Shown one piece after another: positions 614 to 44,721 of a DNA stretch of 64,000 nucleotides. Within the stretch, counting starts at the first letter, position 1. Every line of letters starts with the position of its first letter. The DNA comes from Spongospora subterranea f. sp. subterranea (Eukaryota). Where the stretch lies: assembly GCA_049724395.1 (NCBI GenBank), contig JAUGWO010000124.1:1-64000 (forward strand). The letters run 5' to 3'. The position numbers and the translations under genes were made by a program. Under the pieces are notes generated by a model. The model had not been told where the DNA came from. It saw only the letters and a program-made list of their open reading frames with translations, and did not search any database.

Positions 614-1380
614 CGACAACAATTCTTTGTCGTAAATCTCATAGTTCAATTCGGCAGGAGTGAATTTACGGGAGTAATAAGCTACAGGATGTAAGCCATC
701 GGGGTGCTGTTGAGATAATATAGCGCCCAGGGCAAAATCGGATGCATCGGCCTCCACTACGATATCCAATTCGAGATCGAAATGCGTAGGACCGGCGCCG
801 AGACGAAGGCAGACTTCAAAGATTGGAATGAAGCATCGGTATTGGAATTCCACTGGTATGGGACGTTATTCTTCGTTAAAGAGAATAGGGGATGAGTGAT
901 GCGAGAATAATTTTGGATGAAACCGCGGTAGCAATTTGCAAACCCCAAAAATGATTGGAGTTCTTTAACTGATTTAGGAACTGGCCATGTAATGATAGCA
1001 GAAATCCGTTCAGGATCCATAAACAAACCACGAGATGATAGGCGGAAACCCAAAAAATCAATCTCGGCCGCATGAAAAACGCACTTGCTAAGTTTGGCCA
1101 ATAGACTATGTCGACGAAGAATTTGCAAAACAGTTTGAACATGCTGTACATGTTCGTCAACGCTTGGGGAGAATATAAGAATGTCGTCAATGCAATAGTG
1201 AAATATATCATTCATGAAACGCTGGAAACCGGCAGGTGCATTGGCCAGGCCAAAAGGCATGACCAAGTACTCAAACAAACCGAATTTGGTCCGAAAAGCT
1301 GTTTTCCACTCGTCGCCTTCTCTGACGCGAACGAGATTATAAGCACTACGAAGATCGATTTTAGAGAAGACCCTTCTGTG
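614..1380 (-). pseudogene. Tf2-like Gypsy reverse transcriptase/RNase H fragment
   Basis: Motifs [57 protein letters not shown] and YEIYDKELL; frameshifted and deleted. Confidence 0.9.
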
Positions 1381-1539
1381 CAGTTCAGATTTCCATAAAA
1401 CGTGAATCCCGGAGGGGTACCCTTTAATGCGCGATACTTTCTTCATTTCCGCTCACCAGGTTAGAAATATTTATCGTCGAATTGCGGCCATAAACTAATT
1501 ATATACTGTATACATTTAGCGAAATCAGATTGACCCGAC

Positions 1540-1960
1540 TTCTGTTCCACAATCAATGGTTTTCCTGAACGATTATTCCCACAAGCAAAAGGGATGTCGC
1601 ATGTTGTACAAGAACGGGGGCTTCTCCCAGAACATCGCAAATGCATTGGTATTTGTAAAGACTGCAAAACTAACTTTTTGGCGTCGAAAACTCAAGAATC
1701 CAGAAATTCCTACATGCTGTCTGACCCGATTTTGGAATTGGAAGCAGAGTTTTCATCAGAATTTTGCCAAAGATCCATGTGAGTTAAACCCAAGTAGAAA
1801 TGGCATGGGAAAGGGCAAAGTTATTTGCCGCGAACATGCGATTATCCGTTTCCCGGCTTACGTAACAAGGCGCCACAGATCCTGGATGAAATTCCATTAG
1901 TTGTTAGGAGGAACCAGGTCCGTTTCGAAATAAACCGAAGTGTATTATTTGAACAGACTA
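1540..1960 (+). pseudogene. Degenerate IS630/Tc1-like DDE transposase fragment
   Basis: Across frames: KGMSHVVQERGL, a CC motif, FLPK-x-CELNP and CDYPFPGLRNKAPQILDEIP. Confidence 0.55.
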
Positions 1961-2040
1961 TACAAGGAGTGGACAAGAATGACCAGCCTTGAGGTCGATT
2001 CTTTCGGAAACTGTGAGTGGAATGCGGTTGAAGCCGCGAA

Positions 2041-4283
2041 TGTTAAGTATATTATACTTGTGTTGCTAACATGACCCCCTCCTTAAGCCAGGGCCCGGCT
2101 ATGGACGGGGATCCACATGAAACCAACGAATCGTTTCCTTTAAGGCCGGTGTGGAACCAAGGTTACGTGCGGGCTCTTACGATCGCTCTGACGGCGGATA
2201 CCCTTCAATCGAGGAGATACTGCAACTGATTTCTATACCAAAACGAGAGTCCAGTACCTCATTGACAATATATAATGGGTCCTTGTGGTCAGAGTCAAGG
2301 ATAAGAGGCGGAGGTGGAGATTGAACGCGCTCTGGGATCTCGTTCTCCTTGTGTGGGGACAGTAGTGCAACATGGAATGCGTTGTGGAGCCGACTGTCAT
2401 GTGATAGGGATAAACGGTAGGTCACTGGGTTGATCATCTCTGTAATGGAGTACGGCCCTAATCTTCGACTACTCAGCTTAGAACTAGGACGGCCAGATGA
2501 AATACCCTCTGATTTCAACCAAACCATATCGCCAACCTTGTAGTTCGGGTGAGGTAGTCGTTTCTTATCAGCGAAATGTTTCATATCTCGAACCGAGCGT
2601 TGTAGTTCTGCCTTGAGGAACATCCGAACTTCATTGATGTGGTTTACTCGTTCATCAGCCGATGGAAGAGTCGCAACTGAACACGATGTGGCGTCGTCGA
2701 AACGGGGGTGAGAACCATAGACCGCATAAAATGGCGTCATCTTTGTCGCCGAATGTTCTGCGTTATTGTAAGCGAATTCAGCAACGTAATGACCAATTCT
2801 GGTAACAGATCCACCCAGTTGTTTTGTTGGAAATTAATGTAACAGCGCAAGTACTGTTCCAACACTTGATTTAGTCTTTCTGTCTGCACATCCGTCTGGG
2901 GGTGTCGCGATGAGGACAGTTTGCGATCAATCTTGAAGCGAGCCAACAGGTGTTTCCAGAATTTCGAGACGAACTGGGGTCCGCGATCGGAAATGATCTC
3001 GTCGGGCAACCCATGTATTTAAAAACATTCGTCAAGAAAACAACTCGGCGAGACCTGCCCCATTTATCGATTCGGTGCAAGGAATAAAATGGCTCATTTT
3101 GGAGAAACGATCTACCACCACCAGGATAGAATCGTGCCCCCGAGACTTCGGCAATCTAACAATGAAGTCCATGGTAATCGAGCGCCAAATGTCCTCTGCG
3201 ATCGGTAAAGGGCAGAGTAGACCGTGCGGTTGATGGCGACTGGACTTTGCTCTAGCACATGTGTCACAGGAGATAACATACCTTTTAATATACTTGGACA
3301 TTCCAGGACACCAGTAGGTGCGTCGTACTGAGTTAAGTGTCTTAGAAATACCGAAATGACCACTCGCTGGGGCATCGTGACGTGCCTTCAATATGTCCAG
3401 TTTACAATCTTCTCCCACCACTACCAGCGATTGCTCTTTGTAGAGGATGCCGTTGTCGAGTCGAAAACTTGTCACAGGAAGCCTTGAAATGATATCCTGG
3501 ACGAAGGTGTCCGACTGCTGGTTAAGTTTGATACGCTCCTCGATCGATTGAGAAGGGTTAATCATCTTGGCACATAATGTAGCTGCAGGAGTAGGTAAGA
3601 GCTGATCCGGTTGAAGTATCCGTAATCTTCGCTGCACCTTCCAGATAGGGTCGGTTGGTTGAATTTCGTATTCGGGACGCCGCGACAACGCATCTGGTTT
3701 TCCTGATTGACTACCAGGTCGGTGCACGATGACGAACGGATATTCGGCGAGCATTAATGACCAACGAGCGAGCTTGTCGGCGACTGAGAGTCTTGGACGA
3801 GGTAAAATAAATCAAATTCATGTGGTCGCTGTACACGATGATTTTGTGCTGTGCTCCTTCCAAAAAATGTCTCCACACTTGAAACGCTACCACGATCGCA
3901 AGTAGTTCTTTGTCATGAACATCGTAGTTCAATTCCGAAACTGTTAATTTTCTCGAATAGAACGCAATAGGATGTGATTTACCGTCCATTTGCGGTTGCG
4001 AAATCACGGCGCCGAGGGCGAAGTCTGACGCATCGGTCTCAATAATGATAGGTAAGATAAGGTCAAAATGCTTCATAACAGGCGCTGATGTGAACGCTCG
4101 TTTCAGGGTCCCGAACGCGGACTCGGCCGCGGCCGACCAATCAAATGGTTGATCTTTTTTCGTCAGAGACGTCAAAGGTGAAGATATTTTGGCGAAATCT
4201 ACGATGAACTCCCTGTAGAAATTAGCAAAGCCTAGGAAACTTTGGACGTCCTTGACTGTTGAAGGTGTCGCCCAATCGAGGAC
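2041..4283 (-). mobile_element. Chromovirus-type Gypsy 3' half (RNase H, integrase, chromodomain-like tail, PPT, LTR stub)
   Basis: [16 protein letters not shown] integrase (HDAPASGHFG...CDTC); IISDRGPQF; GPY motif; polypurine tract at 2072-2085 followed by TGTTAG. Confidence 0.9.
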
Positions 4284-4964
4284 CACTGTCGCATCTGTGT
4301 CTGGTGTATTGACAGGCGTCATATGCACCAATCCTGACACATCATCCCTGATTACTAATAGCCATTGGAAATCATGATATGCACCCTCCTTAAGCGGCAT
4401 CATATACAGGTAATCAAAGTGTAATACTTGATTAGGTCTGCTGCATCCATGACATGCTTCTCCTAGTGGTCGTGGCACCTGCTCACCACCTCTGCTGTGA
4501 ACGCAATGCAAGCATTCCTTGCCGATAGTCCTCACGTCCTCGATCATATTGGTCCAGTAAAACCGTTCCTTAATCAATTGTGCCGTCGAATTGATTCCAT
4601 TATGACCATTACGTGCACCCATATGTGCAATAACACATATCCTTAACCTTAAATCCCGACTACCAGACGGAATAACAATCTGTCCCTGATCATTCACAAA
4701 CAATCCGTTAGTTTGTCTAAGGTTTTCCTGTTCCATTTCCGTTAGCTTATTAGTTTGTTCTGTGCCTATTTCCTGTTCATTAGGGAACACAAACGTTCGC
4801 TCATCCATTGGCCTGACCCTATATTGGCCAATATTAATCGATTCCTCATTGGATTCTGGTTCCATTCCAATGCGATTAACCCTGATCCCATTCCTCCTTT
4901 GGTTTGTGGCGATCTCCTGATCAAGCGTCAAATCATCCTTATTTGACGATCCCCATCTGGTCAT

Positions 4965-7900
4965 TCAGTCTGCCAAGACGTTTTCCTCACCAGCTATGTG
5001 TTCAACCGTATAGTTGAACTTCCTGATCTCCATTCCCCACCGCTCCAGGCGTTGCCCAGCCTGTTTGGTGCACCTAGTTGGACTATACATGGCCGCCAGA
5101 TTTTTATGATCTGTGTATATCCTGAATGGAGTGTCTCCAATTTGAATAAAGTAATCCAACTTCTTTAAAGTGTCCCATATTGCAAAGGCTTCCTTATCCG
5201 GTGTAGACCAATTCAGTTCAGATCCATTGAACCTATGTCCTACAAATCCCAACGGTTCGTGTCCCTGATCATTCCTCGGTTTCCCAATATCCCCAATAGG
5301 AATTTGAGTGACCATCCCTGAGGCATGAAATTCACTGGCATCAGTGAATACACATTGAACCTTATCCTTCATTGGATAACTCAGCTGCGTTTTCCTAGCA
5401 ATTGCGCCTTTGATGTTTCGAAAAGCGTCGATATGAATGTCTCCCCATCCATGCCGGTCTAATCTCACACCACGAGCTACTGCTTTTGTCCGTTTGGGCT
5501 GATTCTTCATTGCTTTTTCATAAATGTCCTGCAATGGTAAAATCAATTTGTTATACTCTGGAATCGACCTATTCATCCATTGTATAGCCATCATGAATTG
5601 CTGTAAATCCCTAGCCGTTTTCGGATATGGCATTCCATTGAGAGCCGATATCCTCCCTGGATCATGACTGACTCCATCTGGTGTGAAGATGCGGCCACAG
5701 AATTTGGCTTCCCTTAAGAACAAATCACATCGTTCAACATTGAACTTAATGTTATGTTGTTCCGCCAATCTCAATGTCCCCTGCAGTGCTTCAAACCATT
5801 TGTCCTCAGTTTCCGCATGACCTAAAATATCATCAATCCAGATGATCAACGACTTATACAACAATTCCTCAAATATTTCATGCATCCTAGCCTGAAACTG
5901 AGTAGATGAATTCAATGCTCCCTGGATCGAACGTGTTGGAGTGTAAACTCCACGATCGGTCATGAATGAAAACATCTCCTGACACTCCTGGTCAAGTGGC
6001 ATAATCCAAAATCCCTTAAACGCATCCAATGAAAACCAATACTTAGACCCTGCTAAGTATCTAACAATGGATTCCAAGAATGGCATTGGCCATGCTGTGG
6101 CCTTGCATAATGCATTGACTTCCCTGAGATCAACACACATTCTGTATCCTCGTTTCCCTGGTTTTCTGACAACTACCACCGGCGAAGCCCACTCCGCATT
6201 GTAGTTCTCATACACCAATCCATATTTGACCAACAACTTGACAAAAGTGTCCAGAAATTCACTTTGTTCTGTGTTGTATCTCCTAGCTTTGCACCTGACT
6301 GGTTCCACATTATCCTTCAAGCATGTCTTGAAAGGTGTCACCTTAGCTGGTTCATCATTACCTAATGATGCCCTCCACACATTACCGTATGTATGGACCA
6401 ATTTCCTTAGTCGACTTTCCCAATGATTTGGTAATCCATTTTGTATAGCGCGCTCAACCAAACCATTCATTGCACCTCGCAATTCCTCAGGAATATTTTC
6501 CCCAATATTCACATCCTCATCAGAAACTTCCAGATCCTGATTTCCCAATCTTGTCCTCAAGATTAAATGCTCTAGGGCTGTTTTTGGGTCTATCCCTAGT
6601 TCCTTTAGCAAATCCTCGCCAATGAATACCTCATCTTTATCCTCGAAAATCCTCATACTTGGCGTATCCCATACCAAACATCTCCGGTTACGAGTGATCA
6701 GCTCGCCCGTTGCAGTTTGTAAAGTCAGGTCTGCATATACCTCATGCGTTGCCTGAGCCCGTGTCTTATCAGGTAATTCCAATGTGACCAGTTCCTTCAG
6801 TTCACATAACCTGATATCAGGATCCATATCCCTTATTTTCATGGCAATTGACATTGGAATAATTGTCGCTTCTGCTCCACTGTCCAATATCCCTGGAAAC
6901 AGTATCCCAGATGCAGCAATCTTCACTTCAATACCACTGTTCCTTGCTTCATCCACATTCCTATGTGGTGAAGACTTATCCAGATTTCCACAATCATCCA
7001 AAGTTCCAGTGTTAACATTGTCGACAACCTTGCCGATTCTGCACACCAATAGGTACTTGGAACCCTGAGAGACTTTATTGCTGCTAAACTGACGTTTCCG
7101 GCGGTCCAGCAGCTCTGCCATCTCCTTCCCTGTCGGCTTGTCAGGACATTTTGCCATGGGATGCCCTTTCTTGCCGCACTTAAGACAAATGATGTCGGGG
7201 TTGTGATTCGAAGTTTGCATTTGGCCCTCGTGTTTCCGCTTTCGGTTGGCACCTGCCTTCCGAATCGGTGCTTTCAGACTCCTGTCATCCAGCTCACTAG
7301 CCGCAAAAGCCTTCACTTCAGCAACGGTCTCCGCCTTGCTGACCAATGTCTTAACAAAGTCCCGCCAACATCGCTGAAGGCTGGTGTTCCGAACCAGTGT
7401 CTCTTCCTTCATTAACGCGCCTAGCTCCGGCGGTTGCAGAACCGCGACGGTCCACCGGACACGATTCTTTACCCCTTCCGGTGAAGAGAAGAGGTTACCG
7501 TACCCCTTGTCTTTAATTACCTTTTCCTGCCTGGCCAGTAAATCCAGCACTGACAGCTTCCCAACCATAGTCCTGGACATCTTAATCGATAGTATGTCCT
7601 TCTGCACGGTACCTGCCGCCGTCGGCAATCCTCGAACCAGCTCCTGCTTGATCCAGTTTCGTACCTCGGTCCCAGTCACAACCCCTGGATCCCTAACCAG
7701 TTCGTGTATAGCGATAACGGCCAGGTGCTCCGGCTCGATCATCGTGACGACGTCTCTTGCTGTGTCGGACCTTCCAGCATCAGCAAGGTGTAAATCATAT
7801 CTTTCCAATTCCTCCAGGAACTTCACCAAATGTTTCCTCTGCATTCCGGCCAACCTTGGCGCGGCAATGGTTTCCATGATGTCACCAGCCCGACCTCGGA

Positions 7901-8030
7901 CTCGATGACCATCACTTCCCTTCCCATTCTGATAGTTGACAGAGCTCGCCTCCGGATCGTCACCCAGATTAATGGGGCTTCCAGCACCCACTTCAGCCCT
8001 CTCCTCATCAACTATCATTGTGACAGTCAT
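4965..8030 (-). CDS. Gag-protease-RT-RNase H polyprotein
   Basis: Zinc knuckle CLKCGKKGHPMAKC, protease ILDSGA, RT WIDDIL and RNase H FTDAS in 1021 uninterrupted codons. Confidence 0.95.
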   Translation of the reverse strand: MTVTMIVDEERAEVGAGSPINLGDDPEASSVNYQNGKGSDGHRVRGRAGDIMETIAAPRLAGMQRKHLVKFLEELERYDLHLADAGRSDTARDVVTMIEPEHLAVIAIHELVRDPGVVTGTEVRNWIKQELVRGLPTAAGTVQKDILSIKMSRTMVGKLSVLDLLARQEKVIKDKGYGNLFSSPEGVKNRVRWTVAVLQPPELGALMKEETLVRNTSLQRCWRDFVKTLVSKAETVAEVKAFAASELDDRSLKAPIRKAGANRKRKHEGQMQTSNHNPDIICLKCGKKGHPMAKCPDKPTGKEMAELLDRRKRQFSSNKVSQGSKYLLVCRIGKVVDNVNTGTLDDCGNLDKSSPHRNVDEARNSGIEVKIAASGILFPGILDSGAEATIIPMSIAMKIRDMDPDIRLCELKELVTLELPDKTRAQATHEVYADLTLQTATGELITRNRRCLVWDTPSMRIFEDKDEVFIGEDLLKELGIDPKTALEHLILRTRLGNQDLEVSDEDVNIGENIPEELRGAMNGLVERAIQNGLPNHWESRLRKLVHTYGNVWRASLGNDEPAKVTPFKTCLKDNVEPVRCKARRYNTEQSEFLDTFVKLLVKYGLVYENYNAEWASPVVVVRKPGKRGYRMCVDLREVNALCKATAWPMPFLESIVRYLAGSKYWFSLDAFKGFWIMPLDQECQEMFSFMTDRGVYTPTRSIQGALNSSTQFQARMHEIFEELLYKSLIIWIDDILGHAETEDKWFEALQGTLRLAEQHNIKFNVERCDLFLREAKFCGRIFTPDGVSHDPGRISALNGMPYPKTARDLQQFMMAIQWMNRSIPEYNKLILPLQDIYEKAMKNQPKRTKAVARGVRLDRHGWGDIHIDAFRNIKGAIARKTQLSYPMKDKVQCVFTDASEFHASGMVTQIPIGDIGKPRNDQGHEPLGFVGHRFNGSELNWSTPDKEAFAIWDTLKKLDYFIQIGDTPFRIYTDHKNLAAMYSPTRCTKQAGQRLERWGMEIRKFNYTVEHIAGEENVLAD

Positions 8031-8187
8031 TGGTTAGACGCCAAACGCGAATCAAATGCAGATGCAAATGTTTTTGCAAAAAGATCTTTGTAGCGTTTCC
8101 ACGCTGGAATCCGTTCCAAATTCAATGTGTGTATTAGCCATTACTTCTCTATAATTGCTTTAATACGCACTTCTTCCCTCTATACAT

Positions 8188-10762
8188 ATGACCGCATCAC
8201 CCGCATCACAGGCCGCATCACCCGCATCACAAGCGGAGAAGGCTGCTGCGCAGCCTTCTCCGCTTGAACGGTCCGTACACGCACCACCAACGGAGAACGC
8301 TGCTGCGCAGCCTTCTCCGCCTGAACGCCCCGCCACTCGGTCCAGGGCCCGTCGTCAGACCAACATTTGCGCCATGGAGCGTACGATCGTGGGCGCCATT
8401 CGTCCCGACCGAACTGGCAAGAAGCGGTTCAAGCTCTCGCAAGCTCAGCTTGAGCTTGTACAAGCAGGAGTCGATGACGTCCTTGCGCGTATGAACTTGA
8501 CTAGGCGGCAGAACGTTCTCCCTAGTCAGAGTTGGGTGGACGGACTTGCCGTCGAGGAGAGCACCAAGCGAGCGTACGATAAGCACCTCCGCGGCCTACT
8601 GTATTTCTTCGGACTGATTGGGGACTTCGAGTCGCTGATAATCCTGCAGCCGGATGCGCCGCACAACGTTCCCGCCATGAACGTTGACTCAATCCGTAAG
8701 GGAACCACGTTTGGCTTCTTCGTGCCGAACTGATTGCTCTTTCTCAGTACTTTATCTTGATTGGCGAACTCTTGAGGAAGGGACTCATCTGCAGAGGGCT
8801 GATGGGACAGCGGTACTGGATACGTTCGGTGCTCAAATCCTGTCGTCTGGATCTTGGTTAGATCCAGATAACGTCACGCAGATGGGCTCCGCTCTCAAGG
8901 CGATCCATCAAAAGTTCGACCATAGGGGCGCCTATCAGGGAGTATGCCCTGATTGTCAGTTGCAACGTGCGCTGACTCCTCCCAACCGACTCGGATGCGA
9001 TAGGCATTCGCCAGCGCCATTAATCTGGCGAAAAGGAGTTCCGACCCAATCGACGGTTTTTGAAAACGCGTTCAAGCGCATCAAAAAGGATTTGAAGGAT
9101 TACAGAGCGAATGGGGATACCCAACTGACTCCGACTGAGGTGCTTATTCTTCGCGATTACTGCATGAAGGAGAACGACCCGTACTTTTTCATGGTCTACA
9201 CGATATTCATCGTGTTTGTGAAGATGTTCATGCGCAACGACGATGCCAAAAACCTCGACTTTAACGATTTTGAAGAATCGTTCTTTGTTGTAAGTCCTTT
9301 GACTTTTGCATTTTTTTATCGATTTCATATGTTGCTCTGAAGTTCATTCAAAATACCGAATAGCAGAATACTTTTTTTTTGGTTACTTGTTGATAGTTTT
9401 TGTTGAATTTAGATTAACAACAATGTCGTGGAGAAGCTGGCCGTTTGGGTTGATGGCAAAACGGAGAAGCGCCACGACACGAAGTCGCTCCTTTTGCTTC
9501 ATCGTGACCGCGATGTCCCCGAGTTTGATGCTATCTCGCATTTGCTGGCTCACGTTGGATCCCTTCAACTGACTAGTGGATGCTTGTTTCCCGGCAAGCG
9601 ATGGTTCAGTTGTGGACGAAAGATTGAACATTTGCGGCCGATCACATACGACGAGTTCAACAAGGTTTTCCAGGAGCTTTGCCGACGTCTTCTTCGTCGT
9701 CGGGGTCCTTTCGGCGTCCATTGCGCGCGAAAAACCGCATATCTGTTTGCAGTGTGGTATGGCGCAAATCTCATTGAAGCAATGAAAGCAGCTCGCCATG
9801 CGGCCACAGTCAATGCAACCCGATACTACAAGGATGCGGGAGCCGTGATCAATCTGATCAAAGCCACAACGCCGTAAGCGATTAACAGGGTTATTTGCAG
9901 AAAATGAATGCGTTTGTCCAGTGACGACATCGTGAGCCGAGTACAGCCAAAATGGCAACCGGTCTTCGTTGAAAGCGGGCATGTTGTCAGGGAAAACTTG
10001 ACCATGCACTCACGACGTCCGGGGAACGAGCTACGCAGCTTGGTTGTTTTGGCTTCTGAGTATATCCAACGTCTACAATCGCGGCACTTCCTCGGATTTG
10101 ATGATCATGGGCATGGTATTAGCTGCCAACTTTTAAGTCAGGCAATTCTTCAACGAGAGGAAGTCGTCGACGACCCATTCCAGAGATACGCCAGTGCTCT
10201 ACAGAGAGCAAGGGCGAGTATGCCTGAATTGATGGTCGAAATCGACCGCGCTGTACAGGACATGTTAGAACATGTTCGCCAATCTGCAACAGTTACTGCT
10301 GCTGCCGTAGCCAATGTAGAATCGGTAACTTGTTCTGATCTCAATTACTCCATTATAAGTCATTCGTGTATTATGGTATAGATCGAGCGAGCTGGTGACT
10401 CCCTCCTCAGCAATGAGCCGTTGGTTGCATCACAGGCGGTAGAGAAGCGTCGGCAGCAAATGTTCGGCGACTTCGACATCGATCGTTCGCAACTGGGCAA
10501 GCTTAAAACCAGCCAAAAATTACAATTTTTGGTGGAGATATGGCAGCAATGCCATGCTGTTGATAGCGCCCGATTCTCAAACCCGTTCCGGTTGTTTTTT
10601 TCGCAATCGTTACGACCGTTGATGGAGTGCCTGACGGGCCATTTCCAGGGAGATCAAGCCGCTTTTACAGAGGCTTGGTCCACCCAGAAATGTAGGCACC
10701 GATTATTCGGCCGAGATTTGTGCAATGGCAAGGAGCGTTGCACTTTGACACGAACTCTGTAA
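8188..10762 (+). CDS. Tyrosine recombinase, 5 exons, 764 aa
   Basis: Exons 8188-8695, 8748-9289, 9413-9873, 9922-10324 and 10382-10762 join in frame through GT-AG introns (2295 nt). Catalytic pattern: R (MFMRNDD), K (DGKTEK), HxxR (HCARKT), H (ARH), Y (TRYY). Confidence 0.85.
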
Positions 10763-10772
10763 ATTATTCTTT

Positions 10773-11097
10773 ATAAAACCCACTGCGGATAACCCGCCCG
10801 TTGGATCATTGTTGATTAACCCCATTGGGTCATTATAGAACCCCCATTGGAGTCATTGTTGATAGAATTCCCGTCCGGTTGAGTCATTGTTGAATAGAAC
10901 TTCTGTTGAATTCCGGTTTGCATCATCGATGATAAAACCCCCGGTTGAGTCATTGTTGAATAGAACTTCTGTTGAACTCCCGTTTGCGTCATCGACGATA
11001 AAACCCCGGTTGAGTCATTGTTAATAGAATCTCTGTTTGTATTAAATTCCCGTTTGCGTCATCATTTAATGATAAAATTCTTTGGGTTGAGTCACGA
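10773..11097 (+). repeat. Subterminal tandem repeat array
   Basis: GGTTGAGTCA recurs at 10877, 10943, 11008 and 11085 (period 66, 65, 77 bp), with shorter degenerate subunits upstream. Confidence 0.9.
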
Positions 11098-11277
11098 AGT
11101 CGGAAAAAGTGCGCGGCAATTTATCTGCATCATCGTGCATCACATCGATAAAAGTACATTCCCTGGAGTCGAGTAATCCTGCTTGACTCACGCAGTAGAT
11201 GAGGCCGTGGCGCACTTCATGGCATTAGGGGGTGATTAATCCTTATGCCCAAGGATTGATTATTCCCATATGCTACA

Positions 11278-11921
11278 AGCGCGTAAATACTCGCCAGCGA
11301 ATCTCCCCACAACTGCTGCAGCGAATTGGTCAAGGCAACCTGCCGCAGTGCTCTCTCCGATTCGAATATACTCGTCGCATGCATCTGCACCGGTTCCATA
11401 CGCCATTTGCCGAATCGCCGCGGTGACCTTTTGAATGGTGGACAATCCGGATTGGAGCAGAGCGTCTTTCTTCTGGTCGAAGTACTCGTCGAAATCTCGG
11501 ACGCCGTTGAGAACGCGTAGAAAAACTTCTCTCCTCATCCGAAAGCGTCGGCGAAACAACCTGTCATTGTAATTAGGGTTTTCCGAGAAGTAATCAGAGT
11601 AGATGCGGGCCGCACCCAGTGCTCGTCCACGTTCGACATTACGTTTTCGACCAACCCTTGAGCCCCCATGGCGAGAACCTAATTGTCCTGAACTGAACAT
11701 TTCATCGTCGGATGACAGAACAGCATCAATGATAGCATCGTTCTGATCCTCTTCGATAAACGACATTTGCAACCGGCGAAGCAGGTCCATGAAGATATAC
11801 GGATCGTTTTTGGGGATACCTCGCGGTGGACTTACGACACACTAACTGTCCCTATAAAAGGCCGCTCGAACATATTTAGGGATAGGGACTGTGAATTTGA
11901 GGATTTGCGGTGGAGATGCTC
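11278..11921 (-). mobile_element. PIF/Harbinger transposon 5' part (TIR plus transposase N-terminus)
   Basis: Terminus GAGCATCTCCA at 11921; ORF from 11790 with DYFSENP...FRRRFRM...AIRQMAYG...DEYIRIGESTA; truncated at the LTR end. Confidence 0.85.
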
Positions 11922-11981
11922 TCAACGGCTGGCTACGGCTTCAACTTGCCAGACATTCTCATCAGTCAATTATACTTTTGT

Positions 11982-12200
11982 TTAACACCACATATCTTGG
12001 ATCATCCATAACCGCAAGAACGGGATGTTCTCCGGTTTCACAAAGTCCATGGTGCAACCACTGAAATTGCTGTGCAGCCACTCCAAGACGTATACGCCGC
12101 AACTCGAAGTATCTCTCTGCGTCGTACAGAAAACTTCAATCGTTCCGTTGTTTAGATTGGAAAAAAAATGGCATAGATTCCGATCCGGGTCCTGATCTGG
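11982..12200 (-). pseudogene. Ulp1-like (C48) peptidase C-terminal remnant, TE-associated
   Basis: TQRDTSSCGVYVLEW...IPFLRLWM fits the Q-x-D-x-x-x-C-G motif. Confidence 0.65.
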
Positions 12201-12899
12201 CGCAACGAAGGTGGCCTTTCCCCTCTTTGATCCAATCTTGGAATTTCCGTGCCAGAGCAACAGTTTTCATCCATGAGTAAATATCATGCATTTCATGAAT
12301 TAGTTTTCTGAACTGAAATCAGTAACATTTGACAACTAAGACATGATGCCTCTACCTGGAATAAACTCCGAAACGTTCTAAAGAAACTGAGTAATGTTCA
12401 TCTGGAGTAAAACCTCCGGCCATCAAAATTTTGTGACACTTGTCTACCAGATTTTTTGGCAACAAATTCGATATCTGAAAAATAGTGTCGGAATGTAAAC
12501 AGCGATTTCATTCTTGGCCGAACCACACCAGGTGAAAAGTTGATCATCGACAGTCAATGGAGGGTGTCGACCCACCATTGATATTGAAGAATCCATCTGA
12601 GGGTTCCCACGCGAACAGATTGATGTACAGACCTCCACATGTTACAAAGTGTATATTTGAGGTGCCTGCGCGCAGTATCGATCAATTTTCGATCAATTGT
12701 ACAGGTGTACGACAGTGTTTTGCTCAGTGTATCCATAACGGGCTGCGCACAGTTTCGATCAATTTTCGATCAAAATGTATTCCTCCGACAGCTGGCCCAA
12801 TTAGAGTCATAACTCTCAGCCGTCGACTTCTGGCCCAACCGGAAAATAATGAGTCGGTCATATTCCAAGGTGCGGCAAAGGTCAGTTTAGCACTTTAGA

Positions 12900-14294
12900 C
12901 CAATGCCGGCTATATGAACTTGACTATATATGGTTCTAGATCAATCCAGGACCTGCTATGAATCCAGTTTTTGCAAAATTATTATGTGGATGGCCCGTCG
13001 AACAAACAGCTGCTGACTTGGGCAATCTATAGTTCAATAATCACTGGATGTTGATATCCATCGACCTTATGATGCGATAATTTTCCTGTATGATTCACTG
13101 AGATCGGCAACGTTTCAAGACAAATTACAGGAGGTGAATACGCTCTGTATACAGCCATAGTTTTTTAACATTTTCTCTGATCACGATTGGGAAACCGCAA
13201 GCCTGACGGTCCGCTTTAAAGGGATCCTTTGAGCTGTGATTTGTTCATTTCGACAATGGCTGCTGTTCAGGCAGATCGGTCCACCTTGCCGGATGAACTG
13301 TCCGAGTCCGAACTCGACCTGATAACGATCCATTGCCTTTTGAAATAATTCAATAAACTCATGAGCAAATGCGTTTCCAATATTTTTCAAGCACGTAAAG
13401 ATAGACATCGATGTTTCGACGGCCATCCGCATAATAGTTTCAATTAACACTGAATTCGTAGCAGGTCCTGGATTGGTCCAAGACCATATATAGTCAAGTT
13501 CATATAGCCGGCATTGCTCATGAATGTATTGAATCAACTCAAAACGGCAATGGATCTTTGTCAGGTCGAGTTCAGAGTTCAGACTCGGACAGTTCATCCG
13601 GCAAGGTGGACTGATCTGCCTGAGCAGCAGCCATTATGAAAATGAACTAACAACACTAAAAGAATCCCTTTGAAGCGGACCGTCAGGCATTGCGGTTTCC
13701 CAATTGTGATAAGGGAAAATGTCAAAAAGCCATGGCTGTATACAGAGCATTTTCACCTCCTGTAAGTTGTCTTGAAACGTTGCCGATCTCAGTGGATCAG
13801 AGGAAACCATCGCATCATAAGGTCGATGGATATCAACATCCAGTGAGTATTGAACTAGAGATTGACTACAGCTGTTTGTTGAAATGACGCGAAAACACAA
13901 TCAAAGATAGGACAAAGAATAAGCTTGAATGAAGTGTCGACCGCATGAGGAAACGGGATAGGGTGACTGTCTCGGCAGACGTCAGACGATAGAGCTAACA
14001 CGTGAGGATGGTATGTTCGGAAACATGAGAACACCGCATCGATGGAAAAATTATCGAGACCCTGTTTTTCCGGAGCCTGAACATCAAGTCGCCCGAGTTG
14101 AGGCCACGCCACAGTTTCATGGAATTGAGTGGCGACAATATTTGGTCGAGAACTTGAATTTCCATGTTTCGGAGTGAAGGACTCATCAACCTTCTTGTTG
14201 CGTAGATGCCGGTTTCATGCTCAGGCAAGAGGAGACAAGTAATGAATTCGTGGGCAGCAGGGGCTATTTGCAGCGCAATGTGTAGAACAGTCAT
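12900..14294 (-). pseudogene. Degenerate Ulp1-like peptidase with a diverged inverted partial copy
   Basis: Minus strand reads LDNFSIDAVF...VVNL/NTHWMLISIDL; the plus copy has YDSL. 13001-13330 is the inverse of ~13550-13881, and 12901-12968 the inverse of 13449-13516. Confidence 0.6.
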
Positions 14295-14789: not shown

Positions 14790-15383
14790 ATCACACGTTG
14801 ATGGTGACCTTTGCTCTGTCACCGGAATAATGGCATCAAAAATTTCTGATGACGATGGTCTGCTGGAGTCAACAAGTTCGACCTCTAGAAGTACAAAACA
14901 TGAAAAATTTCAATGAATAATTGATATCATACCGGCATACGGTGATGGAGACCTTTGCTCTGTCACCGGAATAATGACATGAAAATATGGTTTGCTGAAA
15001 TCAACATTGACAAATCATATTTGCTGGCGCCGCCGAGGGAGCACGTTTTACCAGGCCGGCAGCACACTCATACAACAAATCGCGCTCCTGCAGCAGTTCG
15101 GCAGCGAAAAGCAACGCGTGGGCGGCAAGCACTGTTCGCAATGCGCCAGGAATGGGATTTTATCTACAGACGGATATCGTTCAGGAGGAAGGTGTCCTTT
15201 CTTTTATCAATCATCTCAGGCGGTATCATCGGGTTCACTGTCTGCCGGTATTTTTTCCAATTATTCCATGTAAATATTCTAACGTCCTGTACTTCTAGAG
15301 TTCGAACTTGTTGATTCCAGTAAACCATATTTTGATGACATTATACCGATGACAGAGCAAAGGTCTTCATTACCGTGTGTCGG
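14790..15383. repeat. Fold-back structure of ~145-bp units
   Basis: GACCTTTGCTCTGTCACCGGAATAATG occurs twice on + (~14806, ~14950) and inverted near 15335-15365; flanking homology extends the match. Confidence 0.8.
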
Positions 15384-15406
15384 CGTCTGTTGTCCAGAGT
15401 TTCTAA

Positions 15407-15501
15407 GTTCTAATACAGAATTGTTATCCACCGATCTAGGAACACAGAATTGTCATCCACCAATCTAGGTAGATCGGTGCATAACAATTCTGTATTAGAA
15501 C
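15407..15501. mobile_element. 95-bp Tourist/Harbinger-type MITE
   Basis: ~32-bp TIR GTTCTAATACAGAATTGTTAT(C/G)CACCGATCTA; TAA on both flanks (15404-15406, 15502-15504). Confidence 0.7.
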
Positions 15502-15509
15502 TAAAAAAC

Positions 15510-17229
15510 GGGCCACTAGAAAAGACTGGATCAAAAAGCTGGATCAAAAAGTGCGTGCCAGTCTTTGAATCCAGTCTTTTCTGTCCTACAGAAAAGACTG
15601 GATTCAAATCACCAGTCATGACGTTCAAAAGACTGGATTCAATCATTCGAATTAAATCAGAGGCCCCGCCATACAAATGACTGGTGGAGGCCGTAGTTCA
15701 GCAATACGACTTTGGCTCGTTTGTGGACCCCAAAGGTTTAACGAGGTTGGCAGGTTTATGGGTTGTTGGGGTTACGGGTTTAAGAGGTGGCAGCTTGGGG
15801 TTTAGGACAGTGTAAAAGACCCTAAGAGGTGGCAGCTTAGCGAAGACTCGTCCAGGCTTCAACTCGTCCAAGTGGCACTCGAGAAATTGAAACGCTTAGA
15901 CAAGTTAATCAAATATCGGGCAAACTCTGCAGAAGGCTGGACACTCTGGACGGTTCTATGCCGTTGTTCAAAACTTGATGAAAGGGCTGATATCGCAGTC
16001 GACTTCTTCGTCCGTCGATTCAGATTATTTTCGTTTGCAAGTTGTTGAAATTATTTTATAAGTTTTAGGACAAGATTTTGATCTCCTGGTGTGGCCCGTC
16101 TGTAGGCAATTGGAACAAGTAATGAACGTCTCTTTGCACACCTTCGCAACGACCGCTGTATTTGCCCTTTCATTCGGTTTGTAACGGCAACAAAACTGTT
16201 CAAGTTATTCACCGTTTCTGTGGGAGAATAAAAAACAGATTCAACGAGCAATCTACGTACAGAGCAAACCTTGAAACAAGCAAATAAACATTCCAATAAA
16301 GACGTGATGTAGCACGTATTATTGTCATGGCCATAGCTTTGATACGTAGTCAGTGCATTTCTATTAATGTTACGACTTCCTTTAGGGCGACCTAATTTAG
16401 CTTTTACTATATTGTCCGGGCCAACTAATTCCTTAGAAGTGTCAGGGGCTCGCCCGTCATTGGCAAGCATTCCTGCCGGATAATAGTTTCACCACAGCCG
16501 TTCCGACAACTATCGATTAGTTCAGCATTATGAAAAGAAAGACCAGAAAAATACCTGATGTTGAAATCATTGAGGTCGTTCTGCTTCGGCCTTAACGCTG
16601 AGACACGACAAGCAGAGGTCGGCAGAGAACAAAAAAGAACCCCGACACATCTTTTTGCAACAAAACGCACGCCCTTGCCAATCTGGAGAGACCTTGTGCT
16701 CTGTAACTGCCACCGGGAATAGCAATTAAGTAGATTGGGCATGTCCTTAATGTTTTCAAACCGGTATACATCAGGTGACAGTGGGTATCCCGATGAATCA
16801 ATTTCGTGATCAGTGTGATTGTGAGGAGTTAAATCGAAATCGTCAGAGTCATCAATTGCCCATGTGGACTGCGCGCGCCGCATTTGTTGTAAAGGGAAGT
16901 TGGAGGCAGGCATGAGTATTAAGGTCTCGGGATGTGATTATACAAGCTCTTGCTACCAAGTCTGATCAAATTGTGGAATGCGGGAAGTCCCGGAGCCGCA
17001 CGGTCGCACCGCACCGTCCGGTAACCCTGTTCATTCACTTCGCAGAAAATCCTTTGAGTCATTTGTATGGCGGGGCCTCTGATTTAATTCGAATGATTGA
17101 ATCCAGTCTTTTGAACGTCATGACTGGTGATTTGAATCCAGTCTTTTCTGTAGGACAGAAAAGACTGGATTCAAAGACTGGCACGCACTTTTTGATCCAG
17201 CTTTTTGATCCAGTCAATTCTGTAGGCCC
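15510..17229 (-). mobile_element. Mutator-like element (MULE), internally deleted
   Basis: 173-bp TIRs (15510-15682, 17057-17229) starting GGGCC; 9-bp TSD CTAAAAAAC (15501-15509, 17230-17238); internal ORFs 16425-16913 and 16051-16470. Confidence 0.92.
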
Positions 17230-21728: not shown

Positions 21729-23804
21729 TGTCAGGAATGTTAATACAAACGATGTTAATAGTAAACGACGTTATCCGAACTGAGCATTTGCCCAGTTCGG
21801 ACGGTACGCTTCAATCGTTTATTAATAATATACGTTGTGAGTAGTACGGTCGGTAGTACGGTCGTCGTACGGTCGTGACAGTATCCCCCCTTTCGGCCGC
21901 GGTGCCTCAGGATGAGTCTGATGAAATTGAACAATACAATCCTTTAAAGCGGGTGTGGCGGAAAGGAGTAGCGATGATGAGGGTTCCCAAGTACGATCCG
22001 AGACGTCGTAACCCTTCCAGTCTACCAGATACTGGTGTTGACCACGTAAGAGTCGCGAAGCAATTATATCTTCAACCTCATAAAGAGGTTGTTGGCTATC
22101 GTCCAAGGTAAACGGTGGTGGTTTACATTGTTTGCGACCAGGCAGTTGATTCTCGATATAGGGCTCTAGTAGCGAACAATGAAAAACGCGGTGCAATCTG
22201 GAGTCTTTCGGGAGATCAAGCTCATAGGCAACAGGGTTAACTATTCGAACAATAATGAAAGGGCCTAACCGCTTTTCAGAAAGCTTGTCACAGGGCCTCT
22301 TGGAAGGGATCGAATCGCGAATTAACCACACCTTATCGCCAATGATAAATTCGTGATGTGCTCGACGTTTCCTATCGGCAAAACGCTTCATATTATCCAC
22401 AGATTTCCGTAAGGTCGATTGAAGACGAGTGTGAACATCGTGAAGGTGGGAGATCAACTCCACAGTGGAAGGGTTTGGACATGATCCACTACTTGGAACT
22501 CGCAAATCATGCCGAACGTGGAATCCATAATTCGCGTAGAAAGGAGAGATTCCAGTTGAAGAATGGAAAGACTGATATTGTGTCTGATAGAGGGCCCCAG
22601 TTCGTTGCCCAATTCTGGAAGCATCTTCTGAAGTCCTTACATATTCAACGGAATCTCTCCTCGTCACGTCATCCTGAATCAGACGGTCAAACAGAGCGAG
22701 TAAATCAGGTTCTCGAATCATACTTGCGTTGTTTTATTAGCTATCGTCAAAACGACTGGGTGGATATTCTACCCATGGCTGAATTCGCGTACAACAATTC
22801 TTTCCATTCTTCAACTGGAATCTCTCCTTTCTACGCGAATTATGGATTCCACGTTCGGCATGATTTGCGAGTTCCAAGTAGTGGATCATGTCCAAACCCT
22901 TCCACTGTGGAGTTGATCTCCCACCTTCACGATGTTCACACTCGTCTTCAATCGACCTTACGGAAATCTGTGGATAATATGAAGCGTTTTGCCGATAGGA
23001 AACGTCGAGCACATCACGAATTTATCATTGGCGATAAGGTGTGGTTAATTCGCGATTCGATCCCTTCCAAGAGGCCCTGTGACAAGCTTTCTGAAAAGCG
23101 GTTAGGCCCTTTCATTATTGTTCGAATAGTTAACCCTGTTGCCTATGAGCTTGATCTCCCGAAAGACTCCAGATTGCACCGCGTTTTTCATTGTTCGCTA
23201 CTAGAGCCCTATATCGAGAATCAACTGCCTGGTCGCAAACAATGTAAACCACCACCGTTTACCTTGGACGATAGCCAACAACCTCTTTATGAGGTTGAAG
23301 ATATAATTGCTTCGCGACTCTTACGTGGTCAACACCAGTATCTGGTAGACTGGAAGGGTTACGACGTCTCGGATCGTACTTGGGAACCCTCATCATCGCT
23401 ACTCCTTTCCGCCACACCCGCTTTAAAGGATTGTATTGTTCAATTTCATCTGACGCATCCTGAGGCACCGCGGCCGAAGGGGGGTACTGTCACGACCGTA
23501 CGACGACCGTACTACTGACAACGTATATCATTAATAAACGATTGAAGCGTACCGTCCGAACTGGGCAAGTGCTCAGCTCGGACAACGTCGTTTACTATTT
23601 AACATCGTTTGTATTAACATTCCTGACAGTAGTTTTAGGTATATAAGGACCCGAGAATGATGGCCTTGTGCCATCATAGTACCTTTTGGGTCAGTTGGTA
23701 ACTGTGTATCTCGGGCGCAGTTCCTAACAGTTCCGAACTGGGCAAATGCTCAGTTCGGACAACGTCGTTTACTATTAACATCGTTTGTATTAACATTCCT
23801 GACA
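21729..23804. mobile_element. Inverted pair of chromovirus 3' ends with LTRs
   Basis: 21729-22571 is the reverse complement of 22799-23628. LTRs TGTCA...TGACA at 21729-21880 (-) and 23488-23628 (+); PPT at 23477-23484; extra half LTR at ~23732-23804. Confidence 0.92.
22572..23518 (+). pseudogene. 5'-truncated Gypsy integrase plus chromodomain
   Basis: IVSDRGPQF, HPESDGQTERVNQ, LGPF and YEVEDII...YLVDWKGY...TWEP, without stops. Confidence 0.9.
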
Positions 23805-43902: not shown

Positions 43903-44721
43903 TTACATTTCTTCCGATATTAACGGTTCCTTAAGAATAGTGCCAGGACAGAATTTGATTATATAATGGCTGAGACTATATCCAACAGGCTCTGGTTTCG
44001 CTGTTCTGCACCTGAAAACAGACGATGCATCATCATACGCGTAGCTGTACGCCATTGGGCACGCTTTCTTGAAGATTTCCGAATAGGGAAACGGCTTACA
44101 TGTAGCTACGTTGCCAAACGCTCCTCTACAACAAAACTGATCTGTGTCGAAGATATTGCATGCACTATTACAAGCAACAACTTTCCCCAGCTTGTTCGTT
44201 TTAGCTAATTCTTTAGGGCAATGCATATTAAGATCGTAATTGCATCCTGCTCTTCCACACGAATTCGATGTTTGTTGATTGTTTGCCTGAGGCATAGGTT
44301 CCATTGACATAGGAAGGTTGTAGCCATCTACCAGACTGATGTCGTAGAAGTCAAGATTGTTGACTGATCTGTCGCCGAATGTAATCTCAGCTAGCGTAGC
44401 AGGAGGGTCGCCTCCTCGGCCAGAGCAGTGTAGATCGCCACAATCCCCACTATCACATGATCTTCCGAGCTGATCACATCCTGTCCGGCCCCATATTCGA
44501 CCACTCCATGATTGCGGCACAAACACCTTCTTCTGATGATTTGATATCAACAAGAAACCTCCATCTTCTGGTACTTTTGGGCCTCCTAGAATTCCCACCC
44601 AGATATCCTCGCTGCATCGGTTCTCTATTCTTATGATATGCCCTGAGGCTGCACTGTGTCCTTCATGGAAAAGGGTTACGAACAATATAGCGATTACCGC
44701 CTTTGCCTGAGCATAGACCAT
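43903..44721 (-). CDS. Secreted thaumatin-like protein (PR-5 family)
   Basis: Hydrophobic signal peptide, GRIWGRTGC, TLAE, DFYDISLVDGYNLP, CPMAYSYAYDD and 16 Cys; intronless. Confidence 0.95.
   Translation of the reverse strand: MVYAQAKAVIAILFVTLFHEGHSAASGHIIRIENRCSEDIWVGILGGPKVPEDGGFLLISNHQKKVFVPQSWSGRIWGRTGCDQLGRSCDSGDCGDLHCSGRGGDPPATLAEITFGDRSVNNLDFYDISLVDGYNLPMSMEPMPQANNQQTSNSCGRAGCNYDLNMHCPKELAKTNKLGKVVACNSACNIFDTDQFCCRGAFGNVATCKPFPYSEIFKKACPMAYSYAYDDASSVFRCRTAKPEPVGYSLSHYIIKFCPGTILKEPLISEEM

Follow-up and report, generated by a model that had tools for sequence, protein, structure and literature searches.

What is an intact tyrosine recombinase (YR) gene doing among the remains of other transposable elements, and can the DNA that carries it still move? 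The window (the whole stretch of Spongospora subterranea DNA analysed here, 64,000 nt) holds such a gene at 8188..10762 on the plus strand, and an earlier note, made from the sequence, took it for the recombinase of a Crypton-like mobile element. The element is a Crypton-type DNA transposon, young and expressed. In our reading, to which we give a probability of about 80%, a 3-kb transposon of this type lies at a CATT site in the LTR of a Gypsy element, and the predicted Cre-like recombinase made by its spliced gene likely excises it as a circle and re-integrates it at a CATT-like site.

Five fragments had been proposed to join through four introns into one stop-free frame of 764 aa, and this structure holds: the spliced gene is 2295 nt long and encodes 764 aa plus a stop, while the other two frames contain 29 and 39 stops. 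Exon 1 (8188..8695) begins with the first ATG (8188). Exon 2 (8748..9289) encodes the core-binding region, including a CxxC..CxxH insert (8945-9007) and the catalytic R332 (9233-9235), and exon 3 (9413..9873) encodes K366 (9458), H453 (9719), R456 (9728), H479 (9797) and the nucleophile Y488 (9824). A helical region past the catalytic domain occupies exon 4 (9922..10324), followed in exon 5 (10382..10762) by a linker and a conserved C-terminal helical domain containing C721, H725, C752 and C758. All four introns run from GT to AG: intron 1 (8696..8747; 52 nt, phase 1), intron 2 (9290..9412; 123 nt, phase 0), intron 3 (9874..9921; 48 nt, phase 2) and intron 4 (10325..10381; 57 nt, phase 0).

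Twenty public runs from eight studies contain the stretch wholly or partly, and contigs from four of them were aligned: X14, recorded as an oligo-dT metatranscriptome; X11 and X2, guessed to be RNA; and X3, guessed to be DNA and possibly the source of the assembly. The splice-junction check that the earlier note had asked for supports its introns, all four of which are skipped in both X14 and X11, with a shorter side of 29 letters at intron 4. In X14, the joints of introns 1-3 have a depth of 17.5 and a shorter side of 255 letters, and the joint of intron 4 has a depth of 4.1; the longest X14 contig matches over 1677 nt with 0 differences and skips introns 1-3, and depth is 0 over the flanks (7304-8308 and 10922-11122). 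X2 skips intron 1 as well, yet its contigs are unspliced over introns 2-4, and X3 skips none. Furthermore, a relative with about 57% identity across the catalytic region is encoded at two soil-type metagenome loci (L001 and L002; 2 of 88 candidate stretches), and its introns fall at the positions of intron 1 (L001) and introns 2 and 3 (both loci); the alignment to L002 has no gap at the position of intron 4. Short introns and runs from the rhizosphere may point to a microbial eukaryote living in association with roots.

The protein may start downstream of the first ATG. M62 (8371) is a likely alternative start, giving 703 aa, and the Met of L001 falls at nearly the same place. In the 66 relatives that start with Met, a median of 73.5 residues precede the column of the conserved Y130, compared with 129 from M1 and 68 from M62; at least 120 residues precede it in 10 of the 66, consistent with M1. 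Upstream DNA inside the element would amount to 49 bp for M1 and 232 bp for M62.

The ends of the element can be read from contigs in which it is missing. A joint from 8138 to 11157, skipping 3018 nt with 4 letters of ambiguity, occurs in contigs of X11, X2 and X3 (three studies). It places the element at 8139..11160 (plus strand), 3022 bp including both copies of CATT (left, 8139..8142; right, 11157..11160), of which 3018 bp are missing from the empty site. Both copies are evident in the sequence and at the joint, and an X11 contig aligns from the first letter of the left one. The joined sequence is a Gypsy LTR, so the YR unit is an insertion into that LTR, whose inner piece (8126..8138) and outer piece (11161..11277) lie on the minus strand; the joint and the joined LTR mark the inner piece, and loose ends at 11277/11278 in X14, X11 and X3 mark the outer one. 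Rejoined, the LTR is about 134 bp long, runs TG..CA and fronts a Gypsy gag-pol that lies on the minus strand and has an integrase of its own. LTRs in this unbroken form abound (the joint reaches a depth of 3519 in X3), and the empty site most likely stems from other LTR copies rather than from excision at the present locus.

Cryptons are characterised by terminal direct repeats of 4-6 bp and no terminal inverted repeats (TIRs) (PMC3212892). The element fits a 4-6 bp terminal direct repeat without TIRs or LTRs: its empty site keeps a single CATT, and repeat searches and alignment found no TIRs at its ends. The recombinase gene is the only gene between 8139 and 11160, where we found neither a reverse transcriptase (RT) nor a DDE transposase. 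Together with the Cre-like fold modelled for a relative (below), the CATT repeat, the empty site and the lack of an internal RT agree with the earlier description of a YR-only, intron-bearing, TIR-less element of Crypton type.

One contig suggests that this element also occurs elsewhere. An X11 contig of 1983 nt, in which intron 1 is skipped, aligns from 8139 to 9013, and about 1160 further letters have no match on 6500-12500 among the pieces listed, giving it a different left flank that starts at CATT. A second insertion site, likewise bearing CATT, would explain this contig most simply, although it is a single one from a run only guessed to be RNA. Alignment found no second copy within the 64-kb window. 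Contig depth over the element in X3 is 430-911, compared with 36-114 for minor variants, but depth does not equal copy number and we do not take this as evidence of further copies. The element had been called potentially active, which stands as regards youth and expression but not as regards an excision circle: neither a circle junction nor excision from the present locus was seen in the assembled contigs of the four runs, from which rare circles would drop out.

The catalytic pattern noticed earlier is complete (R332-K366-H453xxR456-H479-Y488), and 89-99% of the relatives aligned conserve each of its six positions. Across 98 aligned relatives, R332 is kept in 94/96, K366 in 96/97, H453 in 91/98, R456 in 87/98, H479 in 95/96 and Y488 in 91/95. 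In the Atlas, exon 3 shows similarity to Phage_integrase clusters (score 0.96), and its ten best family matches all fall in one clan. Pfam returned no family for any of the five exons, a PDB sequence search gave zero matches with either exon 3 or the family profile, and a viral structure library yielded phage integrases and VLF-1 only, at 7-15% identity. The fold check proposed in the earlier note was carried out on a relative (P0009; 29% identical over 653 residues), modelled on a 79-row alignment with a pLDDT of 89.1. Its best match is Cre of phage P1 (Foldseek E 7e-8; Z 16.7, rmsd 4.1, 298 aligned), spanning model residues ~43-437, and a Cre fold is predicted for the window protein from this model; the window's own exon 3, folded alone as a single sequence, reached a pLDDT of 39.7 and was unusable. 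Judging from the model, the core-binding and catalytic domains and the residue order would be those of Cre, but identity is only 13-15%, and the Crypton protein has a Cys/His insert and about 250 extra C-terminal residues.

Two Cys/His modules lie outside the catalytic residues. The N-terminal one had been given as CPDC-x12-CDRH; the motif is present but its spacing is 13 residues, not 12, and its four residues are conserved among relatives (C236 82/84, C239 84/84, C253 84/85, H256 81/85). The Cys/His-containing C-terminal domain reported earlier is likewise present and conserved among relatives (C721 77/78, H725 61/74, C752 51/69, C758 64/64), and these residues form a predicted second metal site, metal binding being suggested here by residue patterns. 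This domain is confidently modelled in P0009 but has no clear match, with a best Atlas score of 0.76 and, within that whole-protein model, a VIA Z of about 5 or less; we do not propose that its fold is new.

Both modules are traits of a large family and not peculiar to the window copy. A word-based homolog search gave one match for exon 3 and none for exon 2; HMMER then gave 287 cluster representatives from exon 3 (E <=0.001), of which the best 150 were considered, and 239 proteins were retrieved for comparison. In 59 of the 239, which have a median length of 705 aa and 23-35% identity, the alignment takes in the Cys/His insert as well as the YR core and the C-terminal domain. The accessory domains that the earlier note did not recognise are thus shared family-wide, and the family may be one already described, the CryptonS lineage. 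Among 30 proteins looked up and 54 listed, named members come from the chytrids Zopfochytrium, Chytridium, Blyttiomyces, Chytriomyces, Quaeritorhiza and Phlyctochytrium, from Rozella, from two species of Aphanomyces and from the aphelid Amoeboaphelidium, where a cluster has 14 members. The gene models of Zopfochytrium look as expected from recent transposition: over 946 aa, identity is 100% among four of them and 94% for one more. Scans of IMG/VR, GTDB genomes and plasmids, sensitive to close relatives only, gave zero relatives.

A FastTree phylogeny (227 YR-core columns; 97 of 99 rows, two with <170 residues having been dropped; no outgroup) groups the window protein with P0157 and P0021 (0.98). 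Since its deep branches lack resolution and an outgroup is absent, we claim neither an origin nor a transfer. Three Megasphaera-type members of 40-44 aa, all in one cluster, were set aside as clustering noise. Two chytrid gene models (P0049 and P0094) combine a recombinase relative with an MFS transporter or a tRNA synthetase, probably because gene prediction merged insertions with their surroundings. Among the literature matches listed, outside Repbase and most subscription journals, none describes Cryptons in chytrids, aphelids, Rozella or phytomyxids. With this family, the hosts of such elements come to include early-branching fungi, and it is a source of many Cre-like recombinases that are adapted to eukaryotes and have short target cores.

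Subterminal repeats occur at both ends of the element, on the plus strand. Those on the left (8192..8332) comprise GCATCAC in four copies (8194-8230) and a 56-bp unit, internally palindromic, in two, and occupy codons 2-48 of the long reading from M1; those on the right (10791..11143) comprise 24-bp and 66-bp units and five GCRTCAY copies. GCRTCAY, a motif defined post hoc from the ends and with non-independent tandem copies, occurs 10 times in the element on one strand (4 within 250 bp of the left end and 5 within 250 bp of the right) and at 0.44 per kb elsewhere. The last 108 bp at the right end, a segment picked post hoc, match the 3' region of L002 with a score of 53 that 0 of 1000 shuffles equalled, and that region contains GCRTCAY twice. 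The right repeats are candidate binding sites or a candidate promoter. One X2 contig lacks 48 nt in the left repeat region (8246-8295), an in-frame length variant of the element.

How might this element move? According to the Crypton model, which takes a circular intermediate route (PMC3212892, PMC13465315), the recombinase would bind both element ends and Y488 would form a 3'-phosphotyrosine; strand exchange across the CATT core would then free a circle and restore the LTR without a scar. Insertion would be the reverse reaction, in which the core of the circle recombines with a genomic core, so that one CATT would come from the element and one from the target. More tentatively, the GCRTCAY repeats at both ends may be the sites bound by the Cys/His modules, and circle formation would put the 3' repeats in front of the gene. 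With so little upstream DNA of its own from either start, the gene may depend for expression on its flanks or on the 3' repeats after circularisation. The X11 contig that begins in foreign DNA suggests the former; the 3' repeats may serve as a promoter after circularisation by analogy with Starships, for which a circular intermediate and junction-boosted expression are reported as shown (10.64898/2026.09.21.753150). The predicted circle junction has a 5-bp inverted arm, matched by 412 of 5000 shuffles and thus not significant; unlike Cre, the element has no significant loxP-like symmetry at its ends.

In Chlamydomonas, CryptonF-1_cRei was observed to excise cleanly and to insert at target sites (PMC9977147), and a 2026 review (PMC13565253) regards the Crypton mechanism as experimentally unshown. 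Within the literature covered, transposition of Cryptons has been observed in action in one alga only. The present copy, whose ends are exactly placed, whose empty site and splicing are confirmed and whose catalytic residues are intact, together with relatives that occur as identical copies in a chytrid, offers a compact test system for probing circle formation and target choice.

Other explanations for the locus differ in what they take the YR gene to belong to. Its start codon lies 155 bp from that of the Gypsy gag-pol, on the opposite strand, and the head-to-head pair could be one YR retrotransposon of DIRS, kangaroo or Ngaro type. However, the gag-pol (gag-protease-RT-RNaseH-integrase; 4290..8033, minus strand, lower end approximate), recognised by translation and by the Pfam families RVT_1, RT_RNaseH and Integrase_H2C2, has a Gypsy integrase of its own (Integrase_H2C2, E 1.8e-11); the YR unit sits inside the LTR of that gag-pol, LTR copies without the unit dominate, and split direct or long inverted repeats bounding the pair are absent. 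These observations leave a joint retrotransposon very improbable, and DIRS, Ngaro and VIPER, in which RT-RNaseH and YR share one set of repeats, were rejected because the adjacent RT comes from a Gypsy that has its integrase too. Domestication as a single-copy host gene, one refutation that the earlier note had named, would account for a spliced, expressed gene with three intron positions in common with a diverged relative. This is the least probable of the explanations and is largely refuted: the gene interrupts an LTR whose uninterrupted form is abundant, rather than sitting at a host locus, X11 provides a second flank, and relatives are present as identical copies.

CATT might instead be a 4-bp target duplication made by a trans-acting DDE transposase, with the recombinase as mere cargo or a resolvase. 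A lone insertion cannot separate such a duplication from a recombination core, but the lack of TIRs and the retention of CATT in the X11 contig with the other flank (alignment starting at 8139) make this improbable, if a little less so than the two foregoing readings. Considerably more weight belongs to a young Crypton copy that is now immobile, left intact as the last-arrived layer of the nest and transcribed solely by read-through from its flanks. The spliced X11 contig does begin far upstream in foreign DNA, no circle was seen, and some copies appear frameshifted by 1-nt indels (an insertion at 9565 in one X11 contig; a deletion at 10557 in contigs of X11 and X2). We nevertheless think immobility unlikely, given that the frame, introns and six catalytic residues are intact and that contigs of the four studies differ by only 0-3 letters in long pieces over the gene.

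If the element is a mobile Crypton, to which group does it belong? CryptonS is the likeliest named candidate, extended beyond stramenopiles, and we lean towards it without filing the element there. The resemblance lies in a length of about 3 kb, a single YR, the lack of GCR1_C, a conserved C-terminal region and a short terminal direct repeat, and the element's family includes proteins from Aphanomyces, an oomycete. In PMC3212892 (Kojima and Jurka 2011), most listed CryptonS families, from oomycetes and a diatom, measure 2.8-3.8 kb, and their terminal repeats are 5-6 bp and mostly TATGG, several families having other or undetermined repeats. By contrast, the repeat here is the 4-bp CATT, and chytrids, an aphelid and Rozella supply most of the named relatives. 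The repeat of one CryptonS family is TAATG, which in reverse complement agrees with the left end of the element; we treat this as a lead only. The likeness to CryptonS is one of description, and the same text, so far as available, mentions neither introns nor Cys/His motifs for that group. No Phytophthora or diatom name appears among the named relatives, which weighs somewhat against CryptonS, although both searches favour close relatives. Oomycete CryptonS proteins presumably share the layout of the window protein, again as a lead only.

An unnamed sister group in place of CryptonS is plausible but less favoured. Rather doubtful, as a whole, is a fuller version of this idea: an unnamed group separate from CryptonS in chytrids, aphelids, Rozella, Aphanomyces and uncultured eukaryotes, with two zinc-type modules, repeats read at its ends, still jumping and activating itself on circularisation. 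Its two modules, both predicted, would be a zinc insert within the core-binding domain and, at the C-terminus, another zinc-type domain, as yet unclassified.

The remaining groups are more distant. CryptonF (fungi, oomycetes and CryptonF-1_cRei of Chlamydomonas) is similarly YR-only and TIR-less with a short terminal core, but GCR1_C is found in 0 of 79 relatives (E up to 0.1) and 0 of 5 window exons, and the C-terminal domain is a different one. Weak similarity to NDC10_II, below cut-off, occurs in 7 of the 79 relatives (best E 1.3e-4), and weak similarity to Phage_integrase in 7 of 79. CryptonA, CryptonI and Glomhopper elements (DUF3504) also have a single YR gene; Glomhoppers often bear introns (PMC13465315), and CryptonA and CryptonI are described as having neither a C-terminal domain nor terminal repeats (PMC3212892). 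CryptonA and Glomhopper were rejected because DUF3504 is found in 0 of 79 relatives and the C-terminal domain is folded in the P0009 model. Starships resemble the element in an inward-facing YR at the 5' end and short direct repeats, but they are large and carry cargo with a DUF3435 captain, whereas this element is 3 kb with one gene and DUF3435 occurs in 0 of 79 relatives. Given the zero counts for all three domains, we do not file the element under CryptonF, CryptonA/Glomhopper or Starship. CryptonV is a cnidarian group with some families inserting in microsatellites (PMC8869645); the target here is no microsatellite.

The surroundings suggest a nest of three layers. The transposable element genes around the YR gene had been called broken, and the adjacent Gypsy indeed has an in-frame stop and ends inside its integrase. 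The stop (4968-4970, minus strand) lies between RNase H and integrase and may reflect mutation or programmed read-through. Pieces of a second, Tf2-like Gypsy (760-4290, minus strand; RT, RNase H, integrase and SH3) are joined to the first inside its integrase. On the other side, an ORF at 11263-11841 (minus strand) has no Pfam match but resembles the start of a Harbinger-type transposase. X14 and X3 have loose ends at 11278, which suggests that the Gypsy inserted into this ORF, the YR element being the youngest layer.

A 21-nt stretch at 6636, in the Gypsy, is missing in contigs of three runs. One X11 contig skips 57 nt at 7050-7108, with GT..AG on the plus strand, opposite the Gypsy frame, and is possibly a spliced antisense transcript across the Gypsy. 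Farther along the window, long nested inverted repeats at 12898-13864 and 14792-15608 (arms <=110 nt, ~90% complementary) are fold-back or MITE-like, and two overlapping chromodomain-integrase fragments on opposite strands (21825-23515) are apparently an inverted duplication. Rfam gave 0 matches in the window. A single-exon thaumatin-family gene with a hydrophobic N-terminus (43903-44721, minus strand; Pfam E 2e-69) has as neighbours host genes that encode a DEAD-box helicase, Sac1 and TruD.
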